64,000 nucleotides of DNA from Chloroflexota bacterium (GTDB lineage: Bacteria > Chloroflexota > Anaerolineae > DTLA01), in assembly GCA_014360805.1 (NCBI GenBank), contig JACIWU010000005.1, positions 1,206 to 65,205 on the forward strand, given 5' to 3'. This document shows positions 12,375-15,284 of this stretch, in pieces (the stretch's first letter is position 1; each line of letters opens with the position of its first letter). The position numbers were made by a program, and so were the translations under genes. The notes under the pieces were generated by a model. It did not search any database. It saw only the letters and a list, made by a program, of their open reading frames with translations, and was not told the origin of the DNA.

Positions 12375-12810
12375 ACTTCGCGCAGATTCGTACTATTCGT
12401 AGATGCGCATGACCCCGCGCGGGGCTGAACCCCCGCGCTACGTGGGCGAAGCCCCCTCCGGGGGCTAACCCCAGCCCGCAGGGCATCGCCCTCTCAGCCC
12501 GATGCTTCAGCGTCGGGCGGGCACGCCAGCACATCCCCTCTCCCACTGGGAGAGGGCTAGGGTGAGGGGCGACGCGCGGGGCTGAACCCCCGCGCTACGT
12601 GGGCGAAGCCTCCTCCGGGGGCTAACCCCAGCCCGCAGGGCTTCGCCCTCTCAGCCCGATGCTTCAGCGTCGGGCGACAAGGAACCGCGAACCCACGCGA
12701 ATAAACGCGAATTTGCCCCAGCCCGCAGGGCTTCGCCCCTTCAGCCCGATGCTTCAGCGTCGGGCTGAACACCCTTCGCGCAGATTCGTGTGATTCCTGG
12801 ATGCCCATGA
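12375..12810. repeat. Non-coding structured repeat block (family B). Two full ~100-bp copies (12415..12508 and 12574..12676) and one partial copy (12716..12776), bracketed by about 35-bp direct repeats (12376..12413 and 12774..12812)
   Basis: The unit gggctgaacccccgcgctacgtgggcgaagccccctccgggggctaaccccagcccgcagggcttcgccctctcagcccgatgcttcagcgtcgggcg contains nested inverted repeats: gggcgaagcc/ggcttcgccc, ccccctccggggg and cagcccga/tcgggctg. ORFs 12316..12546 and 12557..12808 in the track are artefacts of this block. Confidence 0.8.
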
Positions 12811-12828
12811 CCTGCTTTTTGACAGCAG

Positions 12829-12857
12829 CCCCTCCAAATGGTACAATATGTCAGACA
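12829..12857 (+). promoter_or_regulatory. Consensus sigma70 promoter: TTGACA, 17 bp spacer, TACAAT
   Basis: Exact -35 hexamer (12829..12834) and -10 TACAAT (12852..12857), 65 nt upstream of the 12923 ATG. GGAGG RBS at 12911. Confidence 0.7.
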
Positions 12858-12858
12858 T

Positions 12859-12874
12859 CTGACAAACCTGCCGA
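12859..12874 (+). promoter_or_regulatory. Perfect 7-2-7 palindromic operator-like site TGTCAGA-CA-TCTGACA overlapping the predicted transcription start
   Basis: Begins 2 nt after the -10 box. No matching palindrome elsewhere in the window. Confidence 0.5.
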
Positions 12875-12922
12875 GGACGCATCCGACCGCAAACGGCAGG
12901 AAGCATACCACGGAGGCAAGGC

Positions 12923-14392
12923 ATGATTGACCTGACCCTTCACCCTGAATCTCTGCAACGTTCGGTGCAGCGGGCCCGCGAACGGCACATCATCATCCCC
13001 ACCTTCGCCCAGATGAAAGACCCGTCGCTCATCCCCGACTCCATCAAGGCGCGGCTGAAGAACGTCGGCTTGTGGGACGTGAATCCCCTCAACCTGTTCC
13101 GCATCACGTGGAAGAACGAGCCGGTGCCCTTCGGCGGCGGGTTTGACGGGGTCAACTACGTGGAACTGCCGCCTTCGCTAACGGGGGTGCCCGCCCGCAT
13201 CATCGCCCTCGTGGGCAAATGGTTCCCCACGGGCGCGCACAAGGTGGGCGCCACCTTTGGCTGCCTGGTTCCGCGGCTGGTAACGGGCCAGTTTGACCCT
13301 TCCTACCACAAGGCCGTCTGGCCGTCCACCGGCAACTTCTGCCGGGGCGGGGCGTACAACGCCGCGCTCCTGGGTTGCGAGTCCATCGCCATCCTGCCCG
13401 AGGAAATGAGCCGCGAGCGGTTTGAGTGGCTATCCAAACTCGCCGGCGAGGTGATCGCCACCCCAGGCTGCGAAAGCAACGTCAAGGAAATCTTTGACAA
13501 ATGCTGGGAACTCCGCAGGACCCGCGGCGACAAAGTCTTCATCTTCAACCAGTTTGAGGAGTTCGGCAACTACCTTTGGCATTACGAGGTCACCGGCCAC
13601 GCGATGGAAGAAGTGCTGCGCCAGGTGATGGGGCCGCGCGACGAGTACCGAGGCGTGGTGCTCACCACCGGCTCGGCGGGCACCATCGGCTGCGGCGACT
13701 ACATGAAGCAGGTCTTCCCCGCCAGCAAGGTCGCCGCCAGCGAGGCGCTCCAGTGTCCCACGCTGCTCCTCAACGGCTTCGGCGGACACCGCATTGAGGG
13801 CATCGGCGACAAGCACGTGCCCTGGGTGCACAACATCAAGAACACCGATCTCGTGATGGCCATAGACGACGAAGCGTGCGTCAGCCTGGTGCGCCTATTC
13901 AACGAGCCGGCCGGTCGGGCCTACCTGGTCAAGCGCGGCGTCCCCGAATCCCTCGTCGGGCGGCTGGACCTGCTGGGCATCTCCAGCATCGCCAACGTCC
14001 TGTCGGCCATCAAGTTCGCCAAGTGGTACGAACTCGGCGAGCACGACATCGTGCTGACGGTCTGGACCGACTCCATGGAACTGTACCAGAGCCGCGTGCA
14101 GGAATTGCGCGCCGAGCGCGGCGAGTACACCGAAAAGGACGCCGCGGCCGACTACAGCCGCTACCTGCTGGGGTGCAGCGTGGACTACGTGGAGGAACTG
14201 GGCTACTGGGACCGCAAGCGGGTGCACAACCTCAAGTACTTCACATGGGTAGAGCAGCAGGGCAAGACCGTGGCCGAGATTCAGGCCCAGTGGTACGACC
14301 CGGACTACTGGACCGGGTTCCAGCGCCAGGTTCCGGAGATAGACGCGCTCATCCAGCAGTTCAACGAGATGACGGGATTGCTGAAGGGCTAG
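12923..14392 (+). CDS. PLP-dependent fold-type II enzyme, TrpB-like (tryptophan synthase beta-related) family
   Basis: 489 aa. The FPTGAHKVGA motif resembles the TrpB HTGAHK lysine motif. Gly-rich GSAGTIGCG PLP-phosphate loop. C-terminal extension. Confidence 0.6.
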   Translation: MIDLTLHPESLQRSVQRARERHIIIPTFAQMKDPSLIPDSIKARLKNVGLWDVNPLNLFRITWKNEPVPFGGGFDGVNYVELPPSLTGVPARIIALVGKWFPTGAHKVGATFGCLVPRLVTGQFDPSYHKAVWPSTGNFCRGGAYNAALLGCESIAILPEEMSRERFEWLSKLAGEVIATPGCESNVKEIFDKCWELRRTRGDKVFIFNQFEEFGNYLWHYEVTGHAMEEVLRQVMGPRDEYRGVVLTTGSAGTIGCGDYMKQVFPASKVAASEALQCPTLLLNGFGGHRIEGIGDKHVPWVHNIKNTDLVMAIDDEACVSLVRLFNEPAGRAYLVKRGVPESLVGRLDLLGISSIANVLSAIKFAKWYELGEHDIVLTVWTDSMELYQSRVQELRAERGEYTEKDAAADYSRYLLGCSVDYVEELGYWDRKRVHNLKYFTWVEQQGKTVAEIQAQWYDPDYWTGFQRQVPEIDALIQQFNEMTGLLKG

Positions 14393-14638: not shown

Positions 14639-15217
14639 TCACTCGCGGCTCCCTGCGCCCTCCCCGAACGTCCAGCGATCCCACGCCACCGTCTCCGCAA
14701 ACGGCTTGCGCGTGCGCGGCTTCTCATCCTTGGCCCGCGTCTCCTCGTCCAGCAGGTCAATGGGGCCTTCGTATCCCAGCGCGACCACCGCCACGACGCT
14801 GTACGCTTCCGGGATGTCCAGGGCCGCCTTCACCTTGGGCGCGCTGTAGCCAGCCATCGGGTGGCCCATCAGCCCCTCCTGCACGGCCGCCAGCAGCAGG
14901 TTCTCCACCCCCAACCCGCACGCGAACAGATGGTACGAGACGGGGTCATCCTTGCGCACATAGTCGTCCTCGGCCCGTGCGCACACCGCGATGAGCACCG
15001 GAGCCTTCCACGCCCAGCGGTTGCCGCGGTTCAGCGCCTCCCGAAATGCCGCCAGGCGCTGCGGGTCGCGCACCACGACAAACCGCCACGGCTGATTGTT
15101 GTTGGCCGAGGGAGCCCAGCGCGCCGCCTCCAAAATGCGCAGCAGGGCATCTTCGGGCACGGGTTTGTCCAGAAAGGACCGCTTGCTATGTCGGCGGAAG
15201 AAAAGAGAGTCCTCCAT
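14639..15217 (-). CDS. Nitroreductase family protein (start placed at MEDSLFF)
   Basis: RHSKRSFLDKPVPEDALLRILEAARWAPSANNNQPWRFVVV is a canonical nitroreductase N-terminus. The 20-aa upstream extension in the track is optional. Confidence 0.75.
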   Translation of the reverse strand: MEDSLFFRRHSKRSFLDKPVPEDALLRILEAARWAPSANNNQPWRFVVVRDPQRLAAFREALNRGNRWAWKAPVLIAVCARAEDDYVRKDDPVSYHLFACGLGVENLLLAAVQEGLMGHPMAGYSAPKVKAALDIPEAYSVVAVVALGYEGPIDLLDEETRAKDEKPRTRKPFAETVAWDRWTFGEGAGSRE

Positions 15218-15284
15218 AAGAACCCCCGAGCGTGGTAATTTGCGCGAAACTATAGGACGGACAGCCGTGGGTGTCAAACCGAGC

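Follow-up and report, generated by a model that had tools for sequence, protein, structure and literature searches.

Organization of the promoter and operator

The stretch of DNA analysed here (the window, 64 kb) carries on its + strand a gene for a 489-aa fold-type-II PLP enzyme (PF00291; 12923-14392) that is CysK/CBS-like. The gene is monocistronic in the window: two deoxynucleoside-kinase genes and a repeat block lie upstream, and a convergent nitroreductase gene lies downstream. The letters of the promoter region, read directly from the window (...cttttTTGACAgcagcccctccaaaTGgTACAATaTGTCAGAcaTCTGACAaacc...), include the -35 hexamer TTGACA (12819-12824; also returned by a promoter scan), a 17-nt spacer between -35 and -10 (12825-12841) and an extended -10 element, TGgTACAAT (12839-12847), with TG at 12839-12840 and TACAAT at 12842-12847, all on the + strand. 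The scan scored this as a sigma-70-type promoter, with 11 of 12 hexamer positions matched, 17-nt spacing and the TG extension. An earlier note on this DNA had claimed TTGACA-17-TACAAT together with a 7-2-7 palindrome, and both are present on direct reading (promoter score 11/12); the feature as then drawn, however, began at 12829 and so clipped the -35 hexamer, the true span being 12819-12864. Transcription is predicted to start at 12853-12855, some 6-8 nt past the end of the -10 at 12847. The 5' leader (12865-12922, + strand) holds a GC-rich hairpin, in which CCTGCCG (12867-12873) pairs with CGGCAGG (12894-12900), and a ribosome-binding site, GGAGG (12912-12916), ahead of the ATG at 12923 that opens the 489-codon reading frame (12923-14392). 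A scan of the whole window against Rfam gave no matches at the gathering score, and thus no riboswitch or known RNA leader family.

Promoters with at least 11 of 12 matches occur five times in the 64-kb window, compared to 0.04 times in shuffled sequence: near-consensus promoters are real features and normal for the source genome. The argument of the earlier note – that a consensus promoter is rare and hence tightly gated – does not follow, because with five such promoters in 64 kb a match alone implies no special gating.

Immediately after the -10 lies the 7-2-7 palindrome TGTCAGAcaTCTGACA (12849-12864, + strand), made up of TGTCAGA (12849-12855), CA and TCTGACA (12858-12864). Within it two sites can be recognized on the + strand. 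Site 1, the operator core TGTC-A-GACA (12849-12857, centre 12853), sits inside a wider symmetry, ATGTCAGACAT (12848-12858), and inside a near-perfect 7-1-7 arrangement, ATATGTCAGACATCT (12846-12860). Site 2 is a degenerate copy, caTC-T-GACA (12856-12864, centre 12860), 7 bp on from site 1; given this offset the two sites lie on different faces of the helix. Together they make up both GTCAGAC|ATCTGAC (12850-12863) and the 7-2-7 palindrome at 12849-12864. The second heptamer has T at its centre where the first has A, and the 7-2-7 symmetry is for this reason a by-product of tandem self-complementary heptamers. The centre of site 1 falls 6 nt after the -10, approximately at the predicted transcription start, and an operator that overlaps the core promoter and the predicted start is in a position that fits repression. 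At 12849-12857 the letters T-GT-CAG-AC-A agree with the GntR-family consensus NyGTNxACNy.

A palindrome of this kind is not in itself unusual. The perfect 16-mer TGTCAGAcaTCTGACA occurs once in the window by pattern search, which also found no second operator copy in the 64 kb. Perfect 7-2-7 palindromes number 10 in the window, where shuffles give 6.5, and the 7-2-7 pattern with up to three mismatches is matched twice, against 1.3 expected. As these counts are close to those of the shuffles and to expectation, the 7-2-7 palindrome is by itself not significant: it is set apart from a chance occurrence by being centred 6 nt after the -10 and by being conserved in other genomes.

Conservation of the operator in related genomes

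Conservation was assessed in 80 orthologous loci on one-genome-per-species contigs; a further locus, L001, a Logan-assembly copy of the window itself, brings the set to 81. The closest relatives encode PLP enzymes 95-96% (L002, L031) and 84% (L009) identical to that of the window. In these three lineages and the window the block ATGGTAnAATATGTCAGAC.TC.GACAAA is invariant, as is ATGGTAnAAT, and the -35 is kept as TTGACA or TTGACG in the three relatives; the rest (spacer, upstream DNA and leader) has diverged. A leader hairpin is found in L002 and L031 as well, there with different sequence. A distant clade (L038, L046, L055, L064, L069, L071 and L077; 72-75% protein identity) has TATAAT-N5 (N4 in L069)-[G/T]TTGTC(A/T)GACAAC before the PLP gene, 35-50 nt from the ATG. 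From the comparison of close relatives with this distant clade the shared element is seen to be the odd palindrome TGTC-W-GACA. The conserved unit is this odd palindrome, followed in the window by a degenerate second copy, rather than a 7-2-7 operator as the earlier note had it: the palindrome is real, but the unit on which the genomes agree is TGTC-W-GACA.

The 958 kb of ortholog loci and window contain 18 exact copies of TGTCWGACA, where about 7 would be expected, and 15 of the 18 lie 1-7 nt past a -10 box, on the coding strand, before the PLP gene or its GT2 partner. The element takes two forms. In the clades outside Anaerolineales the operator consists of self-complementary heptamers repeated every 7 bp: GTCAGAC, ATCTGAC in the window; GTCAGAC, CTCAGAC in L009; GTCAGAC, ATCAGAC in L016; GTCAGAC, GTCAGAT, GACTGAC in L010; and GTAAGAC, GTCAGAC in L021. 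Anaerolineales have one extended 7-1-7 palindrome, AGTTGTC-W-GACAACT. Matches to the tandem-heptamer pattern GT[CAT]WGAC-N-TCWGA[CT] number 12 in 1.04 Mb, compared to some 0.75 expected by our own estimate; each of the 12 lies on the coding strand immediately ahead of a PALP, GntR or thrC gene, and they come from seven lineages.

The operator also precedes thrC (L016, L041) and GT2 (L041, L070, L081), and in L108 it lies between GntR and the first carbamoyltransferase; judged by these positions, it accompanies whichever gene heads the transcription unit. Where the PLP gene stands apart from thrC and upstream sequence is present, the operator lies directly before it in 11 of about 20 loci. About half of the stand-alone PLP genes are without the motif (for example L004, L007, L012 and L074). 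Viewed across these loci, the palindrome has every appearance of a genuine GntR-type operator, conserved and placed on a strong promoter.

A wider search, of metagenomes, used the pattern TATAAT-N4-6-GTTGTCWGACAAC; its figures cover the matches listed. At least 123 sites were obtained, in at least 114 distinct upstream contexts and on at least 120 contigs. Among the 123 matches listed an orthologue of the PLP gene is downstream in 101, and a GntR-family gene in 13: six of HutC type (about 260 aa; L108, L117, L123, L136, L147, L177), one other GntR/UTRA gene (L092) and six of FCD type on human-gut contigs. One more match listed, in L152, is an additional promoter copy some 1.2 kb ahead of a PALP gene, which bears a site of its own, and the eight with an unrelated gene downstream are probably chance occurrences. 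Two of the HutC-type genes (L123, L147) have a second operator copy over the -35. The gut FCD-type GntR gene is preceded by GTTGTCAGACAAC, the very same operator, and the motif alone therefore does not name the GntR subfamily. A search for further copies of the site had been proposed in the earlier note, and among relatives and metagenomes it yielded a small regulon and a candidate regulator.

A candidate regulator of the HutC subfamily

The candidate regulator has a GntR winged helix (PF00392) and a UTRA domain (PF07702), as seen in the L108, L177, L092 and L010 proteins; with GntR at the N-terminus and UTRA at the C-terminus it has the arrangement that defines the HutC subfamily. Its best NCBIfam matches are PhnF (76 bits; cut-off 157) and HutC (69 bits; cut-off 220): scores this far below the equivalog cut-offs mean that it is neither PhnF nor HutC. 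Homologues are numerous (6862 in a profile search). By tblastn a HutC-type homologue lies directly upstream of thrC-PALP in L010, L011 and L021, and in L008, L017 and L057 GntR matches precede the cluster, the L008 and L017 genes ending at the contig edge. GntR stands directly before thrC-PALP or PALP in L010, L011, L021, L206-L208 and the P0207 and P0239 contigs, while in L108, L202 and L204 it is the first gene of the part of the cluster with carbamoyltransferases and carbamate kinase.

The operator was also sought from the side of the protein. Four regulator homologues were found by protein similarity and picked solely on the length of their contigs: in all four the operator comes right after the gene's own -10. 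The regulator promoters of L202/L203 and L204/L205 read TTGACA-17-TATAAT-N4-5-GTTGTCAGACAAC, and those of L206/L207 and L208 read GGTyAGACGTCAGATGAC. On all six regulator contigs (the four checked and two for which the gene table only was used) the regulator is followed by carbamoyltransferase/carbamate kinase/ABC transporter genes or by thrC-like/PALP genes. The tandem-heptamer operator of the window matches the operators that the L010-type HutC regulators carry on their own promoters.

Within the 64-kb window tblastn found no GntR homologue. The earlier note had described a strong promoter with an overlapping operator and no adjacent repressor, a description that the conservation of the operator and this search support. 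Among the neighbours of the motif-bearing loci, all-vs-all clustering and Pfam found no conserved regulator; what they returned was a MerR-GNAT fusion in L064, PlsY, DUF255 and similar. Since the operator site is conserved, a regulator is presumably present in the source genome.

The PLP enzyme and its gene cluster

The earlier note had called the enzyme TrpB-like and unusual. No TrpB model is among its NCBIfam matches at E <= 0.001; the best matches are cysK, cysKM, CBS, SbnA and CysM, all far under their cut-offs. It scores 96 bits with cysK (cut-off 351) and 26-33 bits with CysM (cut-off about 400), below what the cysteine-synthase equivalogs demand. Each of the best 60 PDB sequence matches is a cysteine synthase, a beta-cyanoalanine synthase or CBS, and the nearest solved structures, O-acetylserine sulfhydrylases and CBS, align at E of about 1e-15 over residues ~80-390. 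From these profile and PDB matches the label 'TrpB-like' holds only at the level of the superfamily (PF00291). While CysK/CysM, CBS and SbnA have PF00291 in common with the window enzyme, the extensions of about 100 aa at each end belong to the latter. Its lysine motif is TGAHK, as opposed to SVKDR of the CysK type. The enzyme is thus CysK-like without being CysK, and forms a distinct family. Nor is it unusual: homologues exceed 8000. The best 120 of these are at least 81% identical, those with a named source coming from Chloroflexi or Anaerolineae, and the Chloroflexota/Anaerolineae relatives among the matches listed are 70-100% identical. AlphaFold2, run on 27 close homologues, gave a poor model (mean pLDDT 45).

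In most relatives the PLP gene is part of a conserved catabolic cluster, the order of which is GntR, two carbamoyltransferases, carbamate kinase, Bmp/ABC transporter, thrC-like, (GT2), PLP enzyme, a 198-aa protein and D-hydantoinase. In 53 of the 81 loci the PLP gene is preceded, within 2.5 kb, by a thrC-like gene that passes the thrC model TIGR00260, with GT2 between the two in 36/81. Downstream, the uncharacterised 198-aa protein is found in 36 of 81 loci and a D-hydantoinase/dihydropyrimidinase (TIGR02033, 550 bits) in 33 of 81. Farther upstream are a Bmp-type ABC transporter, carbamate kinase and one or two OTCase-type carbamoyltransferases. The L010 cluster runs on into a xanthine-dehydrogenase-type FAD/2Fe-2S protein, and another contig carries a 1094-aa Fer4_20/Pyr_redox_2 protein that we interpret as YgfK/DPD-like. 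None of the partner genes was found in the 64-kb window by tblastn.

By its gene content the cluster looks like a pathway of purine or ureide fermentation. The reductive uric-acid cluster of E. coli comprises xdhD-ygfM, ygfK, ssnA, hyuA, ygeW, yqeA, ygeY and ygeX. Both have a D-hydantoinase (HyuA family), OTCase-type carbamoyltransferases (YgeW in E. coli), a carbamate kinase (YqeA) and PALP enzymes, to whose Pfam family YgeX belongs, and in some Chloroflexota genomes an Xdh-type or YgfK/DPD-like protein is added. Unlike that of E. coli, the Chloroflexota cluster – known from genes alone – has two carbamoyltransferases, PALP enzymes that are thrC-like and CysK-like rather than YgeX orthologues, and in addition a Bmp/ABC transporter, GT2 and uncharacterised proteins, with no M20 peptidase or SsnA in the loci read. 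A Chloroflexota variant of the reductive uric-acid cluster is mentioned by the authors who described the latter (PMC12507026). Our literature search on this gene combination in Chloroflexota found only E. coli and gut purine papers.

Comparison with known GntR operators

Sites with the same letters have been footprinted in proteobacteria. AlkR of P. aeruginosa SJTD-1, a GntR/VanR protein of the FCD subfamily, is a dimeric repressor of alkB2 that is released by acyl-CoA, and its DNase I footprint at the alkB2 promoter is 5'-ATTGTCAGACAAT-3' (PMC12042122). The AlkR site has 6-1-6 symmetry about the same core, TGTCAGACA, overlaps the target promoter and serves a metabolite-released repressor; by contrast, AlkR has an FCD and not a UTRA domain, comes from a proteobacterium and controls an alkane monooxygenase, and its single site lies over -10 boxes, whereas the window has tandem heptamers at the predicted start site. 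LhgR of Pseudomonas putida W619 protects TAGTCTGACAA at its target promoter and TTGTCTGACAA at its own, sites which its authors call the GntR consensus NyGTNxACNy, citing Rigali 2002 (PMC8206213). In binding its own promoter and a catabolic target, LhgR mirrors the distribution of the operator in Chloroflexota. It differs in serving L-2-hydroxyglutarate catabolism in another phylum, in having no UTRA domain reported, and in adjoining its target, whereas the candidate regulator for the window would act in trans. The window motif is letter-for-letter equal to the AlkR and LhgR footprints, both of which agree with the GntR-family consensus and are bound by proteins of FCD type and not of HutC type.

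The regulators of HutC/PhnF type are alike in having GntR and UTRA domains, and the candidate, too, heads a catabolic operon with the operator on its own promoter. The classical HutC-type operator, as set out by Rigali in 2002, is reportedly an even palindrome, GT-N-TA-N-AC. The window operator is unlike it in being odd, GTC-W-GAC, with FadR-like spacing.

Proposed mechanism and alternatives

We consider it probable that a trans-encoded, autoregulated repressor of GntR/HutC type gates the PLP promoter at the transcription start. The sigma-70-type promoter (TTGACA, 17 nt, TGnTACAAT) would drive a single-gene transcript for the PLP enzyme. A repressor dimer would recognise TGTC-A-GACA, centred at 12853, with a second dimer perhaps on the copy centred at 12860, and once bound would occlude RNA polymerase, or else block open-complex formation or promoter escape. 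The likeliest regulator would be the HutC-subfamily protein that heads and, as its own operator suggests, autoregulates the cluster in related Chloroflexota. In the source genome the PLP gene would have left the cluster, keeping or acquiring its own promoter and operator, while the regulator would be encoded elsewhere and repress its own promoter too. Release would come about when a small-molecule intermediate of the purine- or ureide-like pathway binds the UTRA domain.

The most serious alternative accepts the operator as a genuine GntR site and assigns it to a different binder, either an FCD/VanR-type protein like AlkR or LhgR or some other GntR paralogue; the HutC-type protein at the cluster head would then not be what regulates the gene in the source genome. 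The only footprinted sites identical to that of the window do belong to FCD-type proteins, the FCD-type GntR of gut contigs has GTTGTCAGACAAC before its gene, and no regulator is seen in the 64-kb window. Yet every regulator gene found in Chloroflexota that carries the operator or adjoins the PLP gene encodes GntR plus UTRA, and the tandem heptamers of the window match the L010-type HutC operators at those genes' own promoters; we thus regard a different binder as unlikely. Much less probable is that the palindrome is a chance feature, or a functionless relic, beside a strong constitutive promoter. The near-random number of 7-2-7 palindromes, the one copy in 64 kb and the lack of a regulator nearby are what such a reading would predict, but it hardly accounts for a site that stays invariant in four lineages while all the flanking non-coding DNA has diverged, for its presence in at least 114 distinct promoter contexts of the metagenome scan, mostly before the same gene family, or for a tandem-heptamer form that occurs solely before PALP, GntR or thrC. 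Of all the readings considered we give this one the least credence.

Only slightly better placed, and very improbable in our judgement, is an action of the palindrome in RNA, either as a 5' hairpin that stabilises the mRNA or as a leaderless mini-ORF encoding MSDI and a stop (ATG TCA GAC ATC TGA, 12848-12862). A transcript of the whole palindrome, UGUCAG-ACAU-CUGACA, would fold at -7.1 kcal/mol (z = -3.2). The motif furnishes the ATG of GT2 (M-S-D-N) in L070 and L081 and is in frame with GT2 in L041, and the central W is synonymous in the frame of the mini-ORF (TCA and TCT both encode Ser). The expected start at 12853-12855, however, falls inside the left arm, which would leave both the hairpin and the ATG at 12848 off the RNA, and the Anaerolineales form GTTGTC-W-GACAAC, with a loop of 1 nt, can form no stable hairpin: on these two grounds the RNA hairpin was rejected. 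The motif is found, moreover, in untranscribed places, ahead of the -10 or overlapping the -35 (L041 position 147; L123, L147), and in the distant clade it does not keep a constant reading frame with the gene that follows. The mini-ORF was rejected together with the related idea of a relic of the GT2 start (MSDN / LSDI), the motif occurring also before thrC, over -35 boxes and on GntR promoters. A trans-encoded GntR/HutC-type repressor remains our preferred explanation.

Significance

As regulation, a GntR repressor on a start site is textbook; the PLP enzyme and its cluster are the more interesting lead. A narrow literature search found no paper that describes the operator, the regulator or the cluster in Chloroflexota. 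A common PLP family (more than 8000 homologues) is here tied to a cluster that resembles the recently solved reductive uric-acid pathway, a link that narrows the search for both the substrate of the PLP enzyme and the inducer of the repressor. A more far-reaching suggestion, which we put forward tentatively and think somewhat doubtful, is that the operator marks the regulon of an uncharacterised anaerobic route of purine/ureide breakdown in Chloroflexota, with phosphorolysis, new PLP steps and a ureide-sensing GntR. If so, two phosphorolytic carbamoyltransferases and carbamate kinase would draw ATP from both ureido groups; the thrC-like and CysK-like enzymes would replace the YgeY/YgeX steps with new chemistry (for example albizziin, 2,3-diaminopropionate); the HutC-type GntR would sense a ureide intermediate; and the solitary operator-bearing PLP copy of the source genome would represent a salvaged step under the same signal.

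What the comparison offers is a testable triad of cis-element, regulator and target in Anaerolineae, a widespread and mostly uncultured class. The element itself, whether as TGTC-W-GACA or as tandem GTCWGAC heptamers, lends itself to following one regulon over thousands of metagenomic contigs.

Operator copies outside Chloroflexota

The operator found at the PLP-gene promoter also occurs in human-gut metagenome contigs (L094, L113, L115, L163, L188 and L196), where a 232-aa FCD-type GntR gene lies behind TTGACA-17-TATAAT-ataa-GTTGTCAGACAAC. Since the host of these copies of GTTGTCAGACAAC is an unrelated, low-GC organism, their presence shows that the motif is a general GntR half-site solution and not specific to Chloroflexota. 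The window has a second near-consensus promoter (TTGACA-17-TATAGT; 15277..15249, minus strand) ahead of the nitroreductase gene, which occupies 14639-15277 on the minus strand and runs convergently to the PLP gene. This promoter lacks a GTCWGAC-type palindrome.

Several of the genes downstream of the operator appear leaderless or nearly so, namely those at 5012 in L070 and 5015 in L081 (both orthologue loci), at ~10001 in L204 (the contig of a GntR-regulator homologue) and in the metagenome contig L136. In these cases the operator and the start codon overlap, and no Shine-Dalgarno sequence is present. The GT2 gene of Pelolinea has the arrangement TACAAT-ataaat-ATG, and a GntR example reads TATAAT-N4-GTTGTCAGACAAC-ATG.

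Additional elements and rearrangements at PLP-gene promoters

In the metagenome contigs L131, L141 and L167 an extra long palindrome, GTTGTCACAAATTTCACAATTTGTGACA, lies over the -35 region of the PLP-gene promoter, ~30 nt upstream of TATAAT, and many other such promoters (many soil contigs) carry direct repeats, TTGTGAG-N9-TTGTGAG, over the same region. Both types of element suggest that a second regulator may act on the same promoters. Three further contigs (L129, L152 and L200) contain two operator-bearing promoters on the same strand, ~0.9-1.2 kb apart: the first is followed by an apparently truncated copy of the 5' end of the PLP gene and the second by a PLP gene, which suggests a local duplication of promoter and gene start.

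The promoter in the window is preceded by a GC-rich repeat block (12415-12773) that contains 2-3 copies of 104-nt and 50-nt units and numerous inverted arms. The block is flanked by a 39-nt direct repeat (12376-12414 and 12774-12812; 85% identity between copies) and its end is separated from the -35 of the PLP gene by 7 nt. In the close relatives L002 and L031, the sequence immediately upstream of the -35 is unrelated. The block has the appearance of an insertion, specific to this strain, in which REP/MITE-like units are accompanied by a long target-like duplication.

Genes neighboring the regulator and the PLP gene

Very large proteins (1055-1096 aa) matching both SHMT (PF00464) and GCV_T (PF01571) are encoded in the regulator contigs L202 (3222-6512) and, duplicated, L204 (2724-5990 and 6693-9860), at distances of 3.5 kb (L202) to ~140 nt (L204) from the downstream autoregulated GntR gene. 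Such a fusion is not known to have been described. The PLP-gene cluster itself includes a xanthine-dehydrogenase-type FAD/2Fe-2S protein (L010, 10806-12314) and, on the contig of protein P0239, a 1094-aa Fer4_20/Pyr_redox_2 protein: together these support a putative catabolic role of purine or pyrimidine type for the cluster.
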